Assembly (NCBI GenBank): GCA_902500205.1
Contig: GCA_902500205.1_4868.1
Strand: one strand, 5' to 3'
DNA from: Escherichia coli
Lineage (GTDB): Bacteria; Pseudomonadota; Gammaproteobacteria; Enterobacterales; Enterobacteriaceae
Length of the DNA: 64,000 nucleotides
A program made the translations under genes and the position numbers. The notes under the pieces are model-generated. The model did not search any database. It was not told the origin of the DNA and was given only the letters and a program-made list of their open reading frames with translations. This document shows positions 17,910 to 62,450 of this stretch, one piece after another. The stretch's first letter is position 1, and each line of letters begins with the position of its first letter.

Positions 17910-17935
17910 ATTTCAGATATATATTACCTAGGTGA
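17910..17935 (+). promoter_or_regulatory. Phage promoter-like element, class 1 (ATTTCAGATATATATTACCTAGGTGA)
   Basis: Exact 26-mer also at 27030 and, with one mismatch, at 55847; always after a terminator and before a gene. Confidence 0.55.
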
Positions 17936-17977
17936 GATTGCATTGGTAATCTTTTAACCGACTATCACTTAAGGAAT

Positions 17978-18739
17978 ATGAAAATGAAAACTATCAATCT
18001 GCTCACTCTGGCTAATGGCTCTATCGAACGTAACGAAGACGACGGTGCTATCCTGCAAGCAACCAACGGCTTTAAAATTATACTGTCCCCAATTCAATTC
18101 ACCGGCTTACAAGTCTGGCTGCGCGAAATCAACAAACGCAAACTGCCGCGCCGTATGGCGGTTGGTGACCTGCTCTTTACACTGGATAACGTTGACGGTG
18201 TTAAACCGGAACTGTACGAAGTTCAGTACAAAGCCGCAGTCGATACACTGCGACTGAAGAAAGGGGAAGAAATCAAATTCATTCCGGTGACCTATAATGG
18301 TAACACTTACCTGCAGATGGAAGACACCCCGTTCGCTGTGCACGTCACTGACACTGTTGTTGAACTGGCCATTGCCATTGGTCTGGTTGCGACTCCGGCG
18401 GTACTGGAAGTCAGCGAAGATCCACTGCAGGATTTCGGTACGCTGTTCGAAACCGTGCTGGGTGGCATGAAGCTCGGGAACATCACCAAGGTCATCCGCC
18501 GTATTCCGATTCGGAATGCGCAGCCGAAAGTGATGACGCTGGCAGAAAGCATGACGGAACACCCGGAGCTGACTGCTGAAGAAATTCAGGCGCAAGAAGT
18601 CGCAGCTGAAGAAGAACGTCAGAACGCCCAGCGTGAAGCCATGAAGCCGTTCCGTGGTTTCCTGGATGCTATCTTCGACTGTGCGAACTCGCTGATGAAA
18701 CCAGTTGAAGTGAAAACCGCTGAAGAACCAGCAGCGTAA
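17978..18739 (+). CDS. Hypothetical protein
   Basis: ORF after promoter element; second ATG at 17984 has better RBS spacing. Confidence 0.5.
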   Translation: MKMKTINLLTLANGSIERNEDDGAILQATNGFKIILSPIQFTGLQVWLREINKRKLPRRMAVGDLLFTLDNVDGVKPELYEVQYKAAVDTLRLKKGEEIKFIPVTYNGNTYLQMEDTPFAVHVTDTVVELAIAIGLVATPAVLEVSEDPLQDFGTLFETVLGGMKLGNITKVIRRIPIRNAQPKVMTLAESMTEHPELTAEEIQAQEVAAEEERQNAQREAMKPFRGFLDAIFDCANSLMKPVEVKTAEEPAA

Positions 18740-26066: not shown

Positions 26067-26864
26067 ATGAAAGCGATTCACACCTTTCGCATGACCGGCC
26101 AAACTGTTCTCGACATTGATGCGTACGAAGCCGCTAATTTCACCAAACCGACCAAGCTCTGGGATCGCCTGGTTAAGGTACTGCCGCAAAGCGGTGAGGT
26201 GCAGTTGGATTTTGTCATGGCATCGACGTTGGATAAGACAGTGGCAGTTATTTATACTGCTGACGGTGTGCAGAGTAAGAAGGACCTGGCAATCGAAGAT
26301 AAAGGCGGGCTGGGTTATCACTTGTTCTTGCACTGCGTAACCACTGCACCGATTTCAGCAGCGCTGGCGGGTCAGTATGGTTTCGCGAATGCGTATTTCC
26401 TGGCACAGAAACTCGCCGTGAATGTTATTCCGGGTGACGTGACCACTTACCCTGAATACGTACAGCGTATCCTGCCAGAGCACTTCGCTGCAGACGACTA
26501 CGATTTCAACGTGTTCCGTTTCGCATTGATCGGCGAATCGCGCGATCCAGAATACACCGTTGGCTTGCGTGCTTGTCTGCGTCACTCCGTTATCTCTTCG
26601 GATGAAGGGATGTCGAATAACGTGAACGAAGTGTTCCCGATGATGCAAGTCGGTCCGTATATCACTTTCAACTCGTACATTCCGTTCCCGGCACAGATTC
26701 TGCCGCCACAGAACGATAACAGTGTACTGCCAATCGCCGATAAGTATTCACTGCGTGCGAGCGAAGCAGTTGAAGTGATTAACGATCGTCGCTTTACATT
26801 GTCAGTGACCAGCGGCATCAGTGAACCGGAAGTTGCGGTCTCTCAGAGCCTGGATTTGATGTAA
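26067..26864 (+). CDS. Hypothetical protein
   Basis: RBS CTTAAGGAAAATATT; 265 aa. Confidence 0.55.
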   Translation: MKAIHTFRMTGQTVLDIDAYEAANFTKPTKLWDRLVKVLPQSGEVQLDFVMASTLDKTVAVIYTADGVQSKKDLAIEDKGGLGYHLFLHCVTTAPISAALAGQYGFANAYFLAQKLAVNVIPGDVTTYPEYVQRILPEHFAADDYDFNVFRFALIGESRDPEYTVGLRACLRHSVISSDEGMSNNVNEVFPMMQVGPYITFNSYIPFPAQILPPQNDNSVLPIADKYSLRASEAVEVINDRRFTLSVTSGISEPEVAVSQSLDLM

Positions 26865-27029: not shown

Positions 27030-27055
27030 ATTTCAGATATATATTACCTAGGTGA
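27030..27055 (+). promoter_or_regulatory. Phage promoter-like element, class 1
   Basis: Identical 26-mer to 17910..17935. Confidence 0.55.
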
Positions 27056-27106
27056 TAGAAGACAATCTATCAACTCAATCGACTATTAATCTAAAGGAGT
27101 ATTGCC

Positions 27107-27250
27107 ATGTTAACTCGTAACCATAAACGTGCCATCTTCGCCATCGTTGCTGTTGTTGCTTTCGCGGTACTGTCTATCACTGTAACTCAAGATTACAACA
27201 AGTGCATCGATAACGGTAACTCTGTTGCCATGTGTACAGGTCGCGGCTAA
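27107..27250 (+). CDS. Small membrane protein (47 aa, one TM helix); not in ORF track
   Basis: AAGGAG RBS; my translation MLTRNHKRAIFAIVAVVAFAVLSITVTQDYNKCIDNGNSVAMCTGRG; stop overlaps next start (TAATG). Confidence 0.5.
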   Translation: MLTRNHKRAIFAIVAVVAFAVLSITVTQDYNKCIDNGNSVAMCTGRG

Positions 27251-31725: not shown

Positions 31726-34026
31726 ATGAAAGATACCCGTATCGCTAGTCTGGACCAGCTGGTTCAGCAGGGCAATGCTCTGGTCGCTGCTGCCAAGGCA
31801 GGCTCTTCCGCTAATGACGTATGGCAAACCGTAGCCGTTGGCGAATCTGTACGTAAAAATGCTGCCGGCTTCACCAACCTGCGTGACACTGCTCAGCAGC
31901 ACTACGAAGCTGTAAACCCTGGCAAAACCATGAGCCACGCTGCTCAGGTTGCTTCTGCGATGATTCTGGCTGCTGCCGGTCACGAAGACGACTTCATGAC
32001 CCGTGTTGCTGCCGAGAGCGCGAAGCCGGAATACGCCAGCTACATGCCGATCGCTATTTCTGGTGCAGCATCTCTGGCTGCTGACTACGGTAAAACTCCG
32101 CTGGTCGCAACTGAATACTACACCAACAAAGACCTGGACAAAAACCTGGGTCTGACCTGGACGCTGAACGTGCGTGCTCTGGAAACTCAATCCAAGTTTG
32201 CAGAAACCCTGTTCCCGACCATCACTGTGGACACCAACGACGTCGGCATCACCGTTCGTACCAAAGTTACTACTGTAACTCGTGGTATCCTGAACGCCCT
32301 GCTGACCAAAGACGTGGTTGAAGACAACCGTCAGCCGCTGCATAACGCGCTGTCTAACCACAAAGTCCTGCAGGACGATGCTATCCGTATCGTACCTTAC
32401 GTGATGGAAACCGGTGAGAACGCGAAGTTCTTCGTATCCGAAGACATCATCGAAAACGAAAACGTTCAGCTGGGTCGTGTGCCGGCGTATCCGACCAACT
32501 ACCTGAGCTTCTCTGAACGTCGTCTGAACCTGTTCCAGCTGTCTGCCCATCCGGGTATCGTGCAGGAAGGTTACGATGAAACCGACGAAATCGCACCGGG
32601 TGCAGCGCTGGGTAGCCTGCTGCTGTCTGTGCGTAAGCCGACCGAAGAAGCGAAAGATGGCGCGCTGATCAAACTGAACGTACGCGACATGCAGTTCGCT
32701 ACCTTCCAGCGTCCTCCTGAAGGTGATGGCCGTGAGCTGGTCCTGCAGTTCCGTCGCACTGTGTTCTCCCTGAACGCCAAGTCTCTGGACTGGAAAGGTG
32801 CTGAAATCCCGGCACTGGCCGCTCTGGCACAGAACGATTACACCATTCGTTATTCCATGAACATCAGCATGTCTCTGTTCACCAACGGTCAGTTCTCTGG
32901 TCGTGTTGACGTGACTGCACCGTCTCTGGAAATCGAAGGTCTGTACGACGCAACTGGTACTGCTGTTGATATCGAAAGCGGCACCGGTAAAGTGATCATC
33001 GACAACCTGAAACTGGAGCTGCTGGGCTGGCGCTTCGACGGTACTCGTACCAACGAGAACCGGAGAACCCAGGGCCTTCTGCTCGACCCGATTTGGGAAC
33101 AAGAGAACTACAAACTGCAGTACGGTTCTCCGATCATGACCAAATCTCCGGTTGGCGTTGAATACGACGACACCGAACGTCTGGACGACCTCGTTTCTGC
33201 GGTTAACATCCGTAACGAAATGCTGGCTATCACTCAGACTCTGTCTTACACCGAAGCGGTTAAGAACGCAGCTGCGTCCATGATCACTCCGTGGGACAAA
33301 CCTGCTATCCGCGGCCTGGGCCGTCACTGGGTTGCTCCGTGGTACAGCGAAAGCGACTACGAAGTGGACAAAGTGATCCAGTCTCTGGATACCAAAGATG
33401 CGCTCATCAACGCCCGTCAGGGTCTGGTACAGCGTATCGGTGACCAGGTAACTCGTGCTATCCAGGACTCTCGCTTCATGCCGGCTCTGCGCCTGCTGAC
33501 TGCGGACCCGAACGCACTGCCGAAAGTTGTTATCGCAACTGACGAACCGACTGCTGCAATGCTGCTGCTGGTTCAGGGTGACCAGCGTCTGCTGGGCGAT
33601 CGCTACGAGTACGAAGTTATCACCACCAACGATGACCGCTGGCGTGTGAAGAACGAAGCTGACGGCAGCTGGACTCGCCGCCTGCAGTGGGTTCTGAAAG
33701 TTCCAACCGCTGATGATGGTTCTTACTGTGTTCTGAACTGGGGTAACCACTTCTGGTCTCCGATCATGGTAACCAACATCAACATCCAGCGTAACGGCGC
33801 TACCAGCAAAGAGCTGGCAGTACAGCCTCGTAACGCGCACATCTGCCACTGCCCGATCACTGGTCTGATCTGGATTAAAGGTATCACCAAGTTCGTGGAA
33901 GAGAAACTGGCGTTCAACGTCACTACTACTTCCAACGGTACCGGCGGTACTAATGGCGGTAATGCGGGTGATGTTGGCGGCGGCGCTACCCAGCCAGGTA
34001 CTGGCGGTGAAGGCGCTGGCGGCTAA
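31726..34026 (+). CDS. Highly expressed virion protein, putative major capsid protein, with Gly-rich C-terminal tail
   Basis: 766 aa; strongest host-like codon bias in window; tail TSNGTGGTNGGNAGDVGGGATQPGTGGEGAGG; strong terminator downstream. Confidence 0.4.
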   Translation: MKDTRIASLDQLVQQGNALVAAAKAGSSANDVWQTVAVGESVRKNAAGFTNLRDTAQQHYEAVNPGKTMSHAAQVASAMILAAAGHEDDFMTRVAAESAKPEYASYMPIAISGAASLAADYGKTPLVATEYYTNKDLDKNLGLTWTLNVRALETQSKFAETLFPTITVDTNDVGITVRTKVTTVTRGILNALLTKDVVEDNRQPLHNALSNHKVLQDDAIRIVPYVMETGENAKFFVSEDIIENENVQLGRVPAYPTNYLSFSERRLNLFQLSAHPGIVQEGYDETDEIAPGAALGSLLLSVRKPTEEAKDGALIKLNVRDMQFATFQRPPEGDGRELVLQFRRTVFSLNAKSLDWKGAEIPALAALAQNDYTIRYSMNISMSLFTNGQFSGRVDVTAPSLEIEGLYDATGTAVDIESGTGKVIIDNLKLELLGWRFDGTRTNENRRTQGLLLDPIWEQENYKLQYGSPIMTKSPVGVEYDDTERLDDLVSAVNIRNEMLAITQTLSYTEAVKNAAASMITPWDKPAIRGLGRHWVAPWYSESDYEVDKVIQSLDTKDALINARQGLVQRIGDQVTRAIQDSRFMPALRLLTADPNALPKVVIATDEPTAAMLLLVQGDQRLLGDRYEYEVITTNDDRWRVKNEADGSWTRRLQWVLKVPTADDGSYCVLNWGNHFWSPIMVTNINIQRNGATSKELAVQPRNAHICHCPITGLIWIKGITKFVEEKLAFNVTTTSNGTGGTNGGNAGDVGGGATQPGTGGEGAGG

Positions 34027-34057
34027 TAATCCGTAAGGATTACGTTGCCTAAGATTA

Positions 34058-34096
34058 GCTTACTCCCTTCGGGGAGTAAGCTTTTTCTTTTTTTCT
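34058..34096 (+). terminator. Rho-independent terminator
   Basis: Hairpin gcttactccc-TTCG-gggagtaagc plus long T-run. Confidence 0.8.
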
Positions 34097-34104
34097 AAAA
34101 ATTT

Positions 34105-34129
34105 ATAGATAGATATTATCTTAGGGAGA
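34105..34129 (+). promoter_or_regulatory. Phage promoter-like element, class 2 (ATAGATAGATATTATCTTAGGGAGA)
   Basis: Related copies at 34304, 54150, 62427. Confidence 0.5.
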
Positions 34130-34161
34130 AAGTCATCCGGTTTTAACTTAAGGAGACAGTA

Positions 34162-34245
34162 ATGGAAGTCAATTTAGAGAGATCAAGACTAGTTGCACCG
34201 ATGTTTGATGGGCGCGGTTTTATGGCGAACGGTCACCACGTTTGA
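34162..34245 (+). CDS. Tiny ORF (27 aa) between two promoter-like copies; possible leader peptide
   Basis: TTAAGGAGA RBS; MEVNLERSRLVAPMFDGRGFMANGHHV; followed by hairpin 34269-34293. Confidence 0.25.
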   Translation: MEVNLERSRLVAPMFDGRGFMANGHHV

Positions 34246-34303
34246 TACCCTAAAGTTTTTTACGTTAAGGGCACTGGGTATGAACCCGTGCCCAAAGTAA
34301 TCT

Positions 34304-34325
34304 GAGATAGATATTATCTACGTGA
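34304..34325 (+). promoter_or_regulatory. Phage promoter-like element, class 2
   Basis: GAGATAGATATTATCTACGTGA. Confidence 0.45.
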
Positions 34326-34358: not shown

Positions 34359-35363
34359 ATGAACCGTTATGATTTAGACGTTCAGCCAACGCTAACCCAG
34401 CGGCCCATGCACCGTGGTGCCGTGTCGAAGACTATCACGTACGAAAATAATACCGGGTTTCCCATATACGTCACTGAACTCAGTGGCGGGCATTTTGTTT
34501 TAGCCCCGTCGTCCACCACAGCGGCGGAATTTGGGATTGTGATTTACGTGACCTATACGGTGTTTGCGAACGGTGCTAACCTATCTGGTTTGCGCGACGC
34601 ACATTCGCCAAAGCAGTATGCGCAGATATGTAAGGAATTAACTACGAACGGCGAAACAACGCTGATGTATGTAGTTGATGATATCGGTGCGTTAATGCGA
34701 GGCGACTTGGTGGTGTTGAAGAAGCTAGGAATGGCTTTCTCTACTCAACCAGTAAAACTCGATTCTGAGGTTATTGGTAAGCCAGGAGGGGATCGTAAAG
34801 AATTTGCCTTGGGCGTGGTAGTTGTACAGAAGTACGAAGACCCAGCACCTTTAAAGTGGCTGAGGTTCTATACAACGATGTTGGAAGTCGAACCGATTCG
34901 ATCGAAGTATTACGACGAGGGTATATACATGGTAATCGGTGGTGCGGAGTGCGTCGAAGGGGGTAAGATGATAATGTACTCTTTCGATGACCCGATGTCC
35001 CCGTTCCGGGCGTTTGCATCTGAAGATGAAGCGAGGCGTTATCGGTGGCTCGATAATATTCCAGAGTTGCGAGATGTTCGTGCGAAGCTGGAAGCCACGT
35101 ATCAGGCCAAGTTGCAAGATCTCGATGAGAAAAAGAATCGGCAAGACCTCGATTATCGTACACAACTTAATAATCTGGCGCTAGAGAAGGAGAGGATTAA
35201 CACCCTTAACACAATCCAGACGAATGAGCTTAAGTTGCGTTCCGATGTTCGTAAAGACCAATACGAGTCCCGAGCTTATCAGCGAAAAGATAGCTCGGAG
35301 TTCTTGAAATCCATTCCCGCGTATTTGGCTGCAGGGGTAGCACTCGTTGGGATGATTCTCTGA
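34359..35363 (+). CDS. Hypothetical protein with coiled-coil region and C-terminal hydrophobic anchor
   Basis: Track ORF (TTG 34335) trimmed to ATG 34359; C-terminus SIPAYLAAGVALVGMIL. Confidence 0.5.
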   Translation: MNRYDLDVQPTLTQRPMHRGAVSKTITYENNTGFPIYVTELSGGHFVLAPSSTTAAEFGIVIYVTYTVFANGANLSGLRDAHSPKQYAQICKELTTNGETTLMYVVDDIGALMRGDLVVLKKLGMAFSTQPVKLDSEVIGKPGGDRKEFALGVVVVQKYEDPAPLKWLRFYTTMLEVEPIRSKYYDEGIYMVIGGAECVEGGKMIMYSFDDPMSPFRAFASEDEARRYRWLDNIPELRDVRAKLEATYQAKLQDLDEKKNRQDLDYRTQLNNLALEKERINTLNTIQTNELKLRSDVRKDQYESRAYQRKDSSEFLKSIPAYLAAGVALVGMIL

Positions 35364-35374
35364 GGGAGGCCGGT

Positions 35375-37153
35375 GTGTTTAAAGATGCGATTAGGAAGAT
35401 TAAAGAGGCAGGCGAAATAGTGCCTTTTAATCGTGCAATTGCAGAAGGAGTTGGGTACACACAAGCTAAAGACGGGATACATGATCGTGTGGCAACCATT
35501 CTACGTCGTGAGTTGACGTATGATGAAATCGATAACCCGAAATTACCAGAAGGGTTAACGGTGTTAGGCTGCCGTCAGATGTCCCCGTTTGAAGCTTTTA
35601 TCTTTAAGTTATCGAAGTCGGATAACAATTCACGAAACAATCGTGGCCGGTCAATTATTAACATCTCATCCACTGACACGTATATGGTAATGGCCTCGTT
35701 CCGTGTTCCAGGCGACCCCCGTCCGGTGCAACGACCGATGAGCTTACCATTTATTCGTCGTGGCGGCTTAATGAACTACTACGGTACAACGTACCACGTA
35801 GCACCTGTAATCCACCAACCTGGTATTTGTCGTGAGCACGGTGGTATCTTTATTAACTTTGACTTCACCCGCAAGGTGTCTATCAAGTTCTGTAAGAAAC
35901 CAACGAAGATTCTGGTGAACGGTCGTCCGGAACAACTGTTCTTACCAGGCACGTCGAATCTGTTTGTCTCAACCGGACAGATTGGACACGACACCGATGA
36001 GAAGCCGTTGATGTATTGGCTCTTCGGGCGCTACGGCTTTAAACAAGCTGTGAAGCGTTATGCGGGCGTTGATGTGACGATTTGGCCAGCGATTAAAGTA
36101 CGTGATGTGGACTTAACGAAGTATGTGGTGATTCAGTCCGGTGAGCCACAACTCGCGAAGACCATCCAGTACGTACTGTTGGTTAAACGTGAAGATATGC
36201 CTAACACCGATGCAGGGCGTTGGGATCAGAATGAACATCTGTTGCTGGTAGCGACTGCTGCGTTCTTCAAAGCAGCGCACTACTACGCAGGTAAACAGAA
36301 CAGTAAGAACGGTCGTGCACCAACACTGCCGGGGCTGTTTACACAGATTAACGAAATGGCAATGGACGAAGATATTGCGAACCTCAACTCTGCAGCCTCC
36401 TGGCGCGAAGTGTTGGGTCGTAGTATTCGCGGACTGAAGCCCTCGGATATCGAACTGAGTCGCAGTATGGACAGCCACTTCCAGGAATGTGAACGCTATG
36501 TCAACAGCACCTTCCGTGGTGAGCTGATGGCAAACGATCCGTCCATCCCTGATGATTTGGATATGTTTGATTTCCTCTGGTATACCACGCAGCTGATGGT
36601 GCGTACTCGTCTTACCAAACAAGATGATATTCCGTCTATGTACGGAAAACGTCTCACGGTAACCGATTACTTACTGTTGGGCCAACGTGGCTTTACCACA
36701 ACGATCTCGAAAATACGTTGGAAGCTGGGGCAGTTGGAACATCGGACTCCAGAGACAGCGGCGAAGTCTATTCGAGACGCACTGAACAAACAGATCGTGC
36801 TCAATCTGGTGATGCGCACCATTACGAGCAACGGCGGTATCAGTTTCTTCAATGCCTCTACAGAATCAATGGTATTGGCAGTGTCTACGCACGCCATCGG
36901 TCAAACCGAAACCGATGCTAAGCGTTCGAAGAAAGGAGGCAAGACCGTTAACTTGAACGACCGTACTAAGCACGCATCCGCGTCGCATCTGGAATGTGGT
37001 AACGTCTACTATATTCCTAAGTCGGCACCGTTTAAGGCGAACATCCTCAACCCGTACATGAAGACCAACCCAAGTTTGGTAATGATGCGGAACCCTAAAC
37101 TGGACCCGTACATCAGACCGACCGAAGAAGACATTGCTAAAATCGGCCGCTAA
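35375..37153 (+). CDS. Hypothetical protein
   Basis: GTG start with GGGAGG RBS; 592 aa. Confidence 0.55.
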   Translation: MFKDAIRKIKEAGEIVPFNRAIAEGVGYTQAKDGIHDRVATILRRELTYDEIDNPKLPEGLTVLGCRQMSPFEAFIFKLSKSDNNSRNNRGRSIINISSTDTYMVMASFRVPGDPRPVQRPMSLPFIRRGGLMNYYGTTYHVAPVIHQPGICREHGGIFINFDFTRKVSIKFCKKPTKILVNGRPEQLFLPGTSNLFVSTGQIGHDTDEKPLMYWLFGRYGFKQAVKRYAGVDVTIWPAIKVRDVDLTKYVVIQSGEPQLAKTIQYVLLVKREDMPNTDAGRWDQNEHLLLVATAAFFKAAHYYAGKQNSKNGRAPTLPGLFTQINEMAMDEDIANLNSAASWREVLGRSIRGLKPSDIELSRSMDSHFQECERYVNSTFRGELMANDPSIPDDLDMFDFLWYTTQLMVRTRLTKQDDIPSMYGKRLTVTDYLLLGQRGFTTTISKIRWKLGQLEHRTPETAAKSIRDALNKQIVLNLVMRTITSNGGISFFNASTESMVLAVSTHAIGQTETDAKRSKKGGKTVNLNDRTKHASASHLECGNVYYIPKSAPFKANILNPYMKTNPSLVMMRNPKLDPYIRPTEEDIAKIGR

Positions 37154-54149: not shown

Positions 54150-54172
54150 GGATAGATGTTATCTTAGGGAGA
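54150..54172 (+). promoter_or_regulatory. Phage promoter-like element, class 2
   Basis: GGATAGATGTTATCTTAGGGAGA immediately after terminator. Confidence 0.5.
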
Positions 54173-54266
54173 CGTGCAAAAATTACGTTTCATCCTTAGC
54201 ATATGCTAGAAGCCGTTGTGAGTCGGTTAAAACTCACCAACTTAAACTTAAAAGCGAGTAAACAAA

Positions 54267-55766: not shown

Positions 55767-55803
55767 CCCTCTTACCTTCGGGTAAGAGGGTATTGTCTTT
55801 TTT
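55767..55803 (+). terminator. Rho-independent terminator
   Basis: Hairpin ccctcttacc-TTCG-ggtaagaggg (same stem as 28966) plus T-run. Confidence 0.75.
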
Positions 55804-55846
55804 ACAGATCGTAACAGTCTTATGCTTTTTGCTTCCAGTCCACTAA

Positions 55847-55872
55847 ATTTCAGATATATATTACTTAGGTGA
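55847..55872 (+). promoter_or_regulatory. Phage promoter-like element, class 1
   Basis: ATTTCAGATATATATTACTTAGGTGA; downstream leader AATCGACTATTAATCTAAAGGAGTATT shared with 27078 copy. Confidence 0.55.
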
Positions 55873-55922
55873 GAGTTACTACTAAACTCTCTAATCGACT
55901 ATTAATCTAAAGGAGTATTCTA

Positions 55923-56288
55923 ATGCGTTTTAAACATCAAACCGTTGTGTTGGCAAAGAAAGCATTTCTGGTTCGTCTCTCTTACATTATTACTCGTGTC
56001 ACTGCGAAGGATGTTACGCAGAAAGACATTGCATTGTTGGTAGGCTGCTCACCGTCACAAATCTCTGCGATTAAAAATGAACGCGAGAAAGCCGTGACTA
56101 TCGAAACTCTGATGCGTGTTGCCGATACACTGCGCCTGAATTACGAAATCGTTTACCGTTCCATTAACGGCAAATGCCGCCATAGCTTCAAAATTGAATC
56201 CTGCACCGACTACATGAATAACTGTCCTATCCGGGTACGAGAAACAGGACTTAAAGTCATGGCACGTAAACCTTCTGCAGTGATGTAG
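55923..56288 (+). CDS. XRE-family helix-turn-helix transcriptional regulator
   Basis: HTH signature TQKDIALLVGCSPSQISAIKNER; first gene after promoter-like element. Confidence 0.5.
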   Translation: MRFKHQTVVLAKKAFLVRLSYIITRVTAKDVTQKDIALLVGCSPSQISAIKNEREKAVTIETLMRVADTLRLNYEIVYRSINGKCRHSFKIESCTDYMNNCPIRVRETGLKVMARKPSAVM

Positions 56289-62426: not shown

Positions 62427-62450
62427 CAGATAGATGTTATTTTACTGAAC
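62427..62450 (+). promoter_or_regulatory. Phage promoter-like element, class 2 variant
   Basis: CAGATAGATGTTATTTTACTGAAC. Confidence 0.4.

Follow-up and report, generated by a model that had tools for sequence, protein, structure and literature searches.

Bacteriophages related to phiKZ carry a virion RNA polymerase (vRNAP) into the host cell and make a second, non-virion polymerase (nvRNAP) after infection (PMC7598289, PMC13282480). In phiKZ, vRNAP makes the nvRNAP subunits as early-gene products, and infection does not depend on the RNA polymerase of the host (PMC4666361, PMC13282480). The jumbo phages that encode RNA polymerases all have an AT-rich motif of about 10 nucleotides (nt), centred near -10 (PMC7598289). 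For AR9, the early promoters of vRNAP were mapped by differential RNA sequencing (dRNA-seq) and primer extension to AAATATATATTAT-(6N)-G+1, and the starts in phiKZ and phiR1-37 likewise lie 6 nt past the element (PMC5312081). Here, we analyze a 64,000-nt stretch of DNA from an Escherichia coli assembly (GCA_902500205.1, contig GCA_902500205.1_4868.1; hereafter, the window), in which two copies of a promoter-like motif lie in tandem just downstream of a major capsid protein gene, with a 27-amino-acid (aa) open reading frame (ORF) and a hairpin between them. A preliminary description of this DNA had compared the arrangement with a leader peptide and attenuator or a small regulatory RNA. According to our analysis, both copies are most probably early promoters read by the virion-packaged vRNAP, and the ORF is the stump of a gene rather than part of a leader-peptide switch.

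The window is 99% identical to Escherichia phage vB_EcoM_EC001 (hereafter, EC001) and 98% identical to Salmonella phage SPN3US of the genus Seoulvirus, while Erwinia jumbo phages match the region at 80-90%. Its phage is SPN3US-like (Seoulvirus), a jumbo phage related to phiKZ. EC001, the closest complete genome, was assembled for comparison (269 annotated coding sequences, 94% of the sequence coding).

The motif of the two copies, which we call P1 and P2 (Table 1), belongs to a family referred to here as class 2 (AGATAGATRTTAT-N6-G), as distinct from the related class 1 (AGATATATATTAC-N6-G). With up to one mismatch, AGATAGATRTTATY occurs four times in the window (34107-34120, 34305-34318, 54150-54163 and 62428-62441), always on the + strand, compared with 0.07 expected occurrences, and none of 100 shuffles reached four. 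The family is therefore real at the four places where it had first been noticed, with coordinates that had been off by at most 1-2 nt, and the two local copies, reported to be some 200 base pairs (bp) apart, are separated by 198 bp. The statement that the copies follow terminators holds for the first copy, which comes after a canonical terminator with a T-run, and for the site at 54151; the second copy follows a hairpin without a T-run. When both classes are considered together, the joint core GATA[TG]AT[AG]TTA[CT] followed by N6-G occurs seven times in the window and 0.02 times in dinucleotide shuffles.

The same regularities extend to the genome of EC001, where the exact core GATA[T/G]AT[A/G]TTA[C/T] has 17 sites, all of them on the + (gene) strand and 16 of them intergenic. 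A G is found exactly 6 nt downstream in 17 of 17, and the distance from this predicted start to the annotated start codon is mostly 26-98 nt. For copies with one mismatch, the intergenic ones also keep the G, and intragenic near-matches mostly do not have it. At P1 and P2 themselves, the G located 6 nt downstream of the core is conserved in eight phages, and the predicted 5′ untranslated regions (5′UTRs) are 36 nt from the P1 start and 35 nt from the P2 start.

The motif can be aligned, base for base, to the consensus of AR9 vRNAP, AAATATATATTAT, and it is an extended, conserved, AT-rich element of 12-13 nt near -10, as is characteristic of early promoters. The likeness to the vRNAP early promoters of other jumbo phages includes the G start 6 nt further on, the position upstream of operons, presumed early from phiKZ, with nvRNAP genes among them, often after terminators, and the fact that the elements can be found by motif over-representation alone. 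There are also differences: GATA[T/G]AT[A/G]TTA[C/T] is specific to this clade, its G-variant breaks the alternating AT run once, there are two sub-variants with different transcribed leaders, and the starts are predicted from sequence. The sequences themselves establish the statistics of the motif, its orientation, spacing and conservation, the gene identities and the deletion described below; the polymerase assigned to each motif, the positions of the starts and the time of expression are inferred. Under this proposal, GATAGATRTTAT-N6-G would be one variant of the early promoter, and vRNAP would initiate at the G 6 nt past the core (34126 and 34324).

The genes behind the class-2 motif offer a second line of evidence. 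Searches against the PDB recovered homologues of all five phiKZ nvRNAP subunits (gp123, gp71-73, gp74, gp55 and gp68), in the case of gp68 with E = 3e-6 across ~390 residues. The G-variant heads the operons of all five homologues (Table 1), and in EC001, none of the class-1 sites lies where transcription from it could enter these operons. Because the nvRNAP operons are headed by class 2 and none is reachable from class 1, the simplest explanation is that class 2 would be read by the injected vRNAP. EC001 also has further RNAP beta/beta′-like genes that gave no match to the nvRNAP chains, and SPN3US virions are reported to contain RNAP subunits (PMC7598289).

The preliminary description had suggested that class 2 resembles class 1 and may be a variant of the same promoter, and several observations bear this out. 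Class 1 and class 2 agree in their 12-13-nt core, N6 spacer and G; hybrids between them exist (GATAGATATTAC at EC001 4802 and GATATATGTTAT at EC001 237727); and orthologous promoters can switch class. For instance, the promoter of a helix-turn-helix (HTH) regulator gene is class 1 in the window, class-1-like in Asesino (GATATATTTTAC) and class-2-like in Huxley (GATAGATATCAT). Judged by these sequences, classes 1 and 2 are interchangeable variants of one promoter type, and the promoter interpretation has strong support from comparative and statistical evidence. Class-1 transcripts have features of their own, namely, a 5′-terminal stem-loop and then the conserved leader AATCGACTATTAATCTAAAGGAGTATT before the start codon, and class 2 is mostly without both. 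The stem-loop starts at or within 2 nt of the predicted +1 G in all six class-1 copies and in one hybrid, and where the stems of different copies differ in sequence, the differences compensate each other. Since the stem-loop begins at the predicted +1 G, it provides independent support for the +1 position.

One could also argue that class 2 is a separate delayed-early or middle class, read by a modified vRNAP or by nvRNAP, and that only class 1 is a true vRNAP early promoter. There is a consistent difference between the classes at positions 5 and 12 of the core, the stem-loop and leader just mentioned set class 1 apart, and AR9 vRNAP is reported to be very sensitive to single deviations from its consensus and to tolerate few of them (PMC5312081). 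However, an nvRNAP-dependent class 2 could not bootstrap, as the nvRNAP operons are all headed by class 2, and the hybrids and the change of class between genera at an orthologous promoter are difficult to accommodate in this explanation. We consider it unlikely.

Other points weigh against assigning P1 and P2 to vRNAP, as does the sensitivity of the AR9 enzyme. The assignment rests on analogy and on the need of the nvRNAP genes for a promoter that vRNAP can read, and a full-text search of the literature found no promoter consensus, transcript map, timing or polymerase-binding data for the SPN3US group. Class 1 has a T where class 2 has a G, and this could mean that the two are recognised differently or differ in strength. 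In EC001, an exact class-2 core with the correct N6-G lies at 26619, inside the gp68-like coding sequence; this copy could serve the next gene as an internal promoter, or it could be a relic or a product of chance. Finally, the core contains TATTAT, which is close to the -10 hexamer, and initiation by host sigma-70 would be expected at about the predicted +1 G.

This last point leads to the proposal that the motifs are host sigma-70 promoters used by the RNA polymerase of E. coli or Salmonella. The core ends in TATTAT, which agrees with TATAAT at 5 of 6 positions, and the conserved G is found 7 nt past it, a normal start distance for sigma-70. Nevertheless, there is no -35 element, a consensus scan calls neither P1 nor P2, and its single match in the region is at the level of shuffles. 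Furthermore, 12-13 contiguous conserved bases and a fixed G amount to far more than a -10 hexamer, the alignment with the AR9 vRNAP consensus is base for base, and phages of the phiKZ type develop independently of host RNA polymerase. A sigma-70 origin is thus very unlikely, and we retain vRNAP as the probable reader of both copies.

The tandem arrangement itself is widely conserved. In eight phages of three genera, Seoulvirus, Erskinevirus (Asesino, phiEaH2) and Machinavirus (Huxley, Caitlin), a terminator and P1 follow the capsid gene, and a hairpin and P2 precede a 334-aa gene in 8 of 8; the capsid-gene terminator is kept in all eight relatives compared. When the spacing is compared in related phages, as had been recommended, the distance from P1 to P2 ranges from 198 to 1787 bp, and the slot between them holds zero to three genes: a remnant, one gene, two genes (pEa_SNUABM_29) or three (SPAsTU). 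The P2 core plus CT..GTG is invariant in seven phages of the three genera. As far as these sequences tell, the P1/P2 arrangement is ancestral and consists of two separate promoter-gene cassettes. P1 would drive the variable accessory-gene slot directly behind the capsid-gene terminator, and P2 would drive the 334-aa gene and the gp123-like nvRNAP subunit, which vRNAP must make early. A match in Machina (H70) was found to lie at another locus and plays no part in the orthology argument.

Considering that the slot is bracketed by identical 15-nt repeats (AGATAGATATTATCT) and varies from zero to three genes, one might propose that the repeats are not promoters but serve mainly in recombination, or as operators to which proteins bind, on either side of a mobile gene cassette, much like the T4 promoter-stem-loop cassettes. 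The short inverted repeat AGATA...TATCT would be in line with this idea. Yet all copies are co-oriented with genes and lie 26-98 nt ahead of start codons, neither class 1 nor the site at 62428 has the palindrome, and the deletions that we found are internal to the gene and not between repeats. Moreover, such a role would add to promoter function and not replace it. As a substitute for promoter function, this explanation is next to negligible.

A comparable organization may exist in T4-like phages. Arbiol et al. (2010) are said to have described T4-type promoter-early-stem-loop cassettes that flank the genes of hyperplastic regions. In both cases, repeated modules of terminator and early promoter bracket small, variable accessory genes that are gained and lost between relatives. 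The T4 cassette promoters are, in contrast, sigma-70 promoters.

A side observation concerns P2: a stretch of 28 nt, AAAGTAATCTGAGATAGATATTATCTAC, is identical at P2 (window 34294-34321) and at a distant class-2 promoter (EC001 182612-182640), which suggests that a promoter was duplicated or that a longer sequence is preferred upstream.

The 27-aa ORF does exist and has the good ribosome-binding site (RBS) that had been described for it, yet its relatives show it to be what is left of a longer gene. In SEGD1, an identical terminator, P1, 5′UTR and RBS lead into a 699-bp gene of 232 aa, which stops just upstream of the equivalent hairpin and P2. The same promoter and RBS precede a gene of 232-280 aa in SEGD1, in the SPFM/SPLA phages, in Proteus phage 7 and in Erwinia phages. 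Alignment with SEGD1, JN03 and SaP7 revealed that ~607 bp of this slot gene are missing in the window, SPN3US, EC001 and Lh1B, a lineage that retains ~22 codons from the start of the gene and, in another frame, ~17 nt from its end. In the protein alignment, MEVNLERSRLVAPMFDGRGFMA matches the N-termini of the intact 232-280-aa proteins. JN03 and SaP7 carry an independent truncation, a different allele in which 59 more bp are kept and the frame is lost into a 65-aa ORF; on the evidence of these alignments, the slot gene was lost at least twice. Among database records, the short form of the window is seen in four, the other short form in two and the full-length spacing in at least 25 from Seoulvirus. 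Conservation of the tiny ORF in relatives, on which the first interpretation depended, was not found: the short form is confined to the deletion lineages. In the lineage of the window, a ~607-bp out-of-frame deletion destroyed the slot gene, and its promoter, RBS, first ~22 codons and 3′ hairpin stayed behind. The Lh1B record (OK428535.1) has scattered N across the terminator and P1 (650-700), which lowers its identity and hides P1 from exact searches.

The intact slot gene of SEGD1 belongs to phrog_15414 (E = 7e-105), a family of uncharacterised function. The slot genes of Erwinia phages fall into phrog_19758 and share a C-terminal region of ~55 aa with members of phrog_15414. At the N-terminus, the members of the slot-gene family have MxxxLExSxLxAPMFDGRG in common.

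With the history of the ORF in mind, we can weigh the idea that the tiny ORF, together with P1 and the hairpin, acts as a leader-peptide attenuator or gives rise to a small regulatory RNA, controlling the downstream operon. Its appeal is understandable: as in attenuators of the trp/his type, a short ORF with a good RBS and then a stable hairpin lie upstream of an operon, a transcript from P1 that stopped at the hairpin would be ~168 nt long, and short small RNAs derived from 5′UTRs have been reported for the jumbo phage 201phi2-1. Unlike in trp/his-type attenuators, however, there is no conserved peptide, there are no regulatory codons, and the hairpin region contains neither a U-tract nor an alternative pairing of the terminator/antiterminator kind. 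The 205-nt region of the P1 transcript folds no better than shuffles (z = -0.81), and a permissive search of Rfam returned no match at threshold and two sub-threshold chance matches (24.8 bits vs a cutoff of 55, and 23.3 vs 140). Furthermore, the 232-280-aa gene is present in at least 25 relatives and in every outgroup genus, and the short ORF occurs only in the deletion lineage; JN03 and SaP7 were truncated independently, and the last codons of the ORF are an out-of-frame junction. The downstream operon also has promoters of its own, P2 and a second candidate element described below. In view of these results, control by an attenuator or small RNA is scarcely credible, and the ORF is best read as a deletion stump.

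The hairpin between the promoters had been reported correctly: it folds with -18.1 kcal/mol (z = -3.9), and its loop contains TATG. In every phage folded, a hairpin surrounds this TATG (-11 to -19 kcal/mol), with stems that are unrelated in sequence between genera; for example, Huxley, Caitlin and Asesino keep the hairpin with entirely different stems. RNAalifold applied to the region found no consensus structure, with stems at different offsets, and the sequences were then folded singly. We regard the hairpin as a probable terminator element or 3′ end for the transcript of the slot gene.

The same place harbors a candidate for a second kind of promoter, which we call Pm (Table 1). In an alignment of seven phages from the slot gene to the next gene, the only invariant blocks are TTTTTACG, the TATG 14 nt later and the P2 core, while the 14-nt spacer and the flanks of Pm vary. 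In phiKZ, the middle-promoter motif is 5'-AAanTTACc-3', centred at ~-24, and some middle promoters also have the late TATG(+1) (PMC4666361). At Pm, TTTTTTACG lies at -27..-18 and TTAC at -22..-19 relative to the G of TATG. The phiKZ TATG is bound by gp123 (PMC12809450), and the homologue of gp123 is the gene downstream of Pm. Thus, 34256-34282 is a putative promoter of the phiKZ middle type, with a predicted start at 34282.

Bipartite elements of this type recur throughout these genomes. In EC001, TTTTTAC-N15-T[AG]TG has eight matches, all intergenic and all on the + strand, whereas spacings of N13, N14, N16 and N17 between TTTTTAC and TRTG give 0, 0, 1 and 0 matches. The shorter form TTAC-N15-TRTG has 39 matches, of which 22 are intergenic, and its terminal G lies mostly 24-40 nt before a start codon. 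Within the window, TTTAC-N15-TRTG occurs eight times on the + strand and not at all on the - strand, compared with 1.2 expected occurrences. Upstream of the HTH-regulator promoter, the window and Huxley have a Pm element in common, with a divergent spacer. The possibility that TTTTTACG is merely the T-run tail of a terminator was rejected, given the rigid N14/N15 spacing to TRTG, conserved despite divergent spacers. We also rejected a hairpin at the start as a general feature of TTAC-N15-TRTG elements, whose median z is 0.2. Hairpins with the TATG of TTAC-N15-TATG in the loop do recur at a few loci, such as EC001 143094 (- strand) and a comparison locus (L014:4281-4320).

In comparison with phiKZ middle and late (TATG+1) promoters, Pm has TTAC at the expected position and TATG at the predicted start, and elements of its type lie upstream of non-structural genes genome-wide. 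It differs from the phiKZ middle promoters in that its TTAC is preceded by a T-run and not an A-run, in that TGTG is here as common as TATG and the spacing is rigid (N15), and in the conserved hairpin that surrounds the predicted start at the P2 locus. In vitro, phiKZ nvRNAP did not use middle promoters (PMC4666361), and Pm may therefore be read by nvRNAP or by another enzyme. Our suggestion, which we hold to be possible rather than probable, is that the hairpin marks a middle-type promoter whose start lies in the loop of an inverted repeat kept in three genera, and that together with P2 it forms a two-polymerase feed-forward circuit. Located inside the hairpin, Pm would probably allow nvRNAP, once made, to go on with the transcription of the gene for its own subunit at later stages of infection. 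If so, the gene for the gp123 homologue would be served first by vRNAP and then by self-amplification of nvRNAP, and SPN3US-like phages would have, in the bipartite motif, a sequence-defined middle-promoter consensus that can be found bioinformatically. A review published in 2020 considered the middle and late promoters of these phages not to be predictable in this way (PMC7598289).

The P2 operon, with promoters of the early type and the nvRNAP type, resembles the "continuously expressed" genes of AR9, which have an early and a late promoter (PMC5312081). Three other loci in EC001 pair early-type and Pm-type promoters within ~50 nt, and this suggests that genes with dual promoters are transcribed by both polymerases. 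Pairs are also seen elsewhere in the window: the class-2 site at 54151 is followed 32 nt on by TTAC-N15-TATG (54151-54205), and a Pm element (55801) precedes the class-1 site at 55853.

These observations do not overturn the current understanding of phiKZ-type transcription; the architecture is ordinary phage gene control, and what we describe is of a known type, early promoters that are specific to their clade within the phiKZ-related phages, with a sequence-findable candidate middle-promoter consensus as a by-product. For SPN3US-like jumbo phages, which serve as a genetic model and in phage therapy, they amount to a ready promoter map, with an early consensus with predicted starts and a candidate middle consensus. 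The locus also illustrates an annotation trap, in which the stump of a gene passes for a well-formed mini-ORF with its RBS, and it contains a promoter-bounded slot behind the capsid gene that gains and loses members of an uncharacterised family of early accessory genes.

Table 1. Positions of the promoters, genes and RNA elements discussed in the text (window coordinates unless EC001 or a comparison locus, L, is named; promoter roles and +1 positions are predictions).
Feature	Position	Strand	Details
Capsid-gene intrinsic terminator	34057..34095 (stem 34057-34082)	+	11-bp stem, CTTCGG-type loop, then T-run; terminator scan
P1, class-2 promoter	34096..34126	+	A/T-rich upstream; core GATAGATATTAT 34108-34119; spacer CTTAGG; predicted +1 G 34126
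Shine-Dalgarno AAGGAG	34150..34155	+	6 nt before ATG; inherited from ancestral slot gene
27-aa ATG ORF, pseudogene remnant	34162..34245	+	~22 codons of phrog_15414-family gene, then out-of-frame junction codons
Pm, candidate phiKZ-middle-type element	34256..34282	+	TTTTTTACG 34256-34264, N14, TATG 34279-34282; predicted +1 G 34282
Hairpin	34269..34293	+	GGGCAC-T-GGGT / ACCC-GTGCCC; TATG in loop; no U-tract
P2, class-2 promoter	34294..34324	+	upstream AAAGTAATCTGA; core GATAGATATTAT 34306-34317; spacer CTACGT; predicted +1 G 34324; heads gp123-like operon
Class-2 promoter	54151..54169	+	GATAGATGTTAT-CTTAGG-G; after terminator
Class-2 promoter	62429..62447	+	GATAGATGTTAT-TTTACT-G
Class-1 promoter	17916..17934	+	GATATATATTAC-CTAGGT-G; 5′-terminal stem-loop
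Class-1 promoter	27036..27054	+	5′-terminal stem-loop and conserved leader
Class-1 promoter	55853..55871	+	Pm element upstream at 55801-55824
Class-1 stem-loop/leader regions	17934-17990, 27054-27110, 55871-55925		
Pm family (TTTAC start/predicted +1)	26012/26035, 34259/34282, 55074/55097, 55801/55824, 57408/57431, 61749/61772	+	
Class-2 promoter of gp71-73-like and gp74-like operon	EC001 30362		
Class-2 promoter of gp68-like operon	EC001 25203		
Class-2 promoter of gp55-like operon	EC001 16653		one-mismatch site
Major capsid protein gene, phiKZ gp120 type	31726..34026	+	upstream neighbour; Pfam PF25620 PhiKZ_MCP, E = 7.7e-226
First gene of P2 operon	34359..35363	+	334 aa; phrog_7286
nvRNAP beta-like subunit gene, phiKZ gp123 homologue	35375..37153	+	PDB 7ogp_E PHIKZ123, E = 3.1e-20
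Slot contents in comparison loci	L002:2663-3361, L003:2649-4332, L009:2639-4049, L013:3638-4447, L016:3610-4362, L017:3582-4280		

Regarding the neighbouring genes, a Pfam search gave no match for the slot gene or the 334-aa gene. The orthologues of the capsid gene in SPN3US and EC001 are annotated as major capsid protein, and the gp123 homologue also matches phrog_2943 ("polymerase", E = 1e-187). The offset between window and EC001 coordinates shifts by ~247 bp between ~17900 and 34000, indicating at least one insertion or deletion in that interval.

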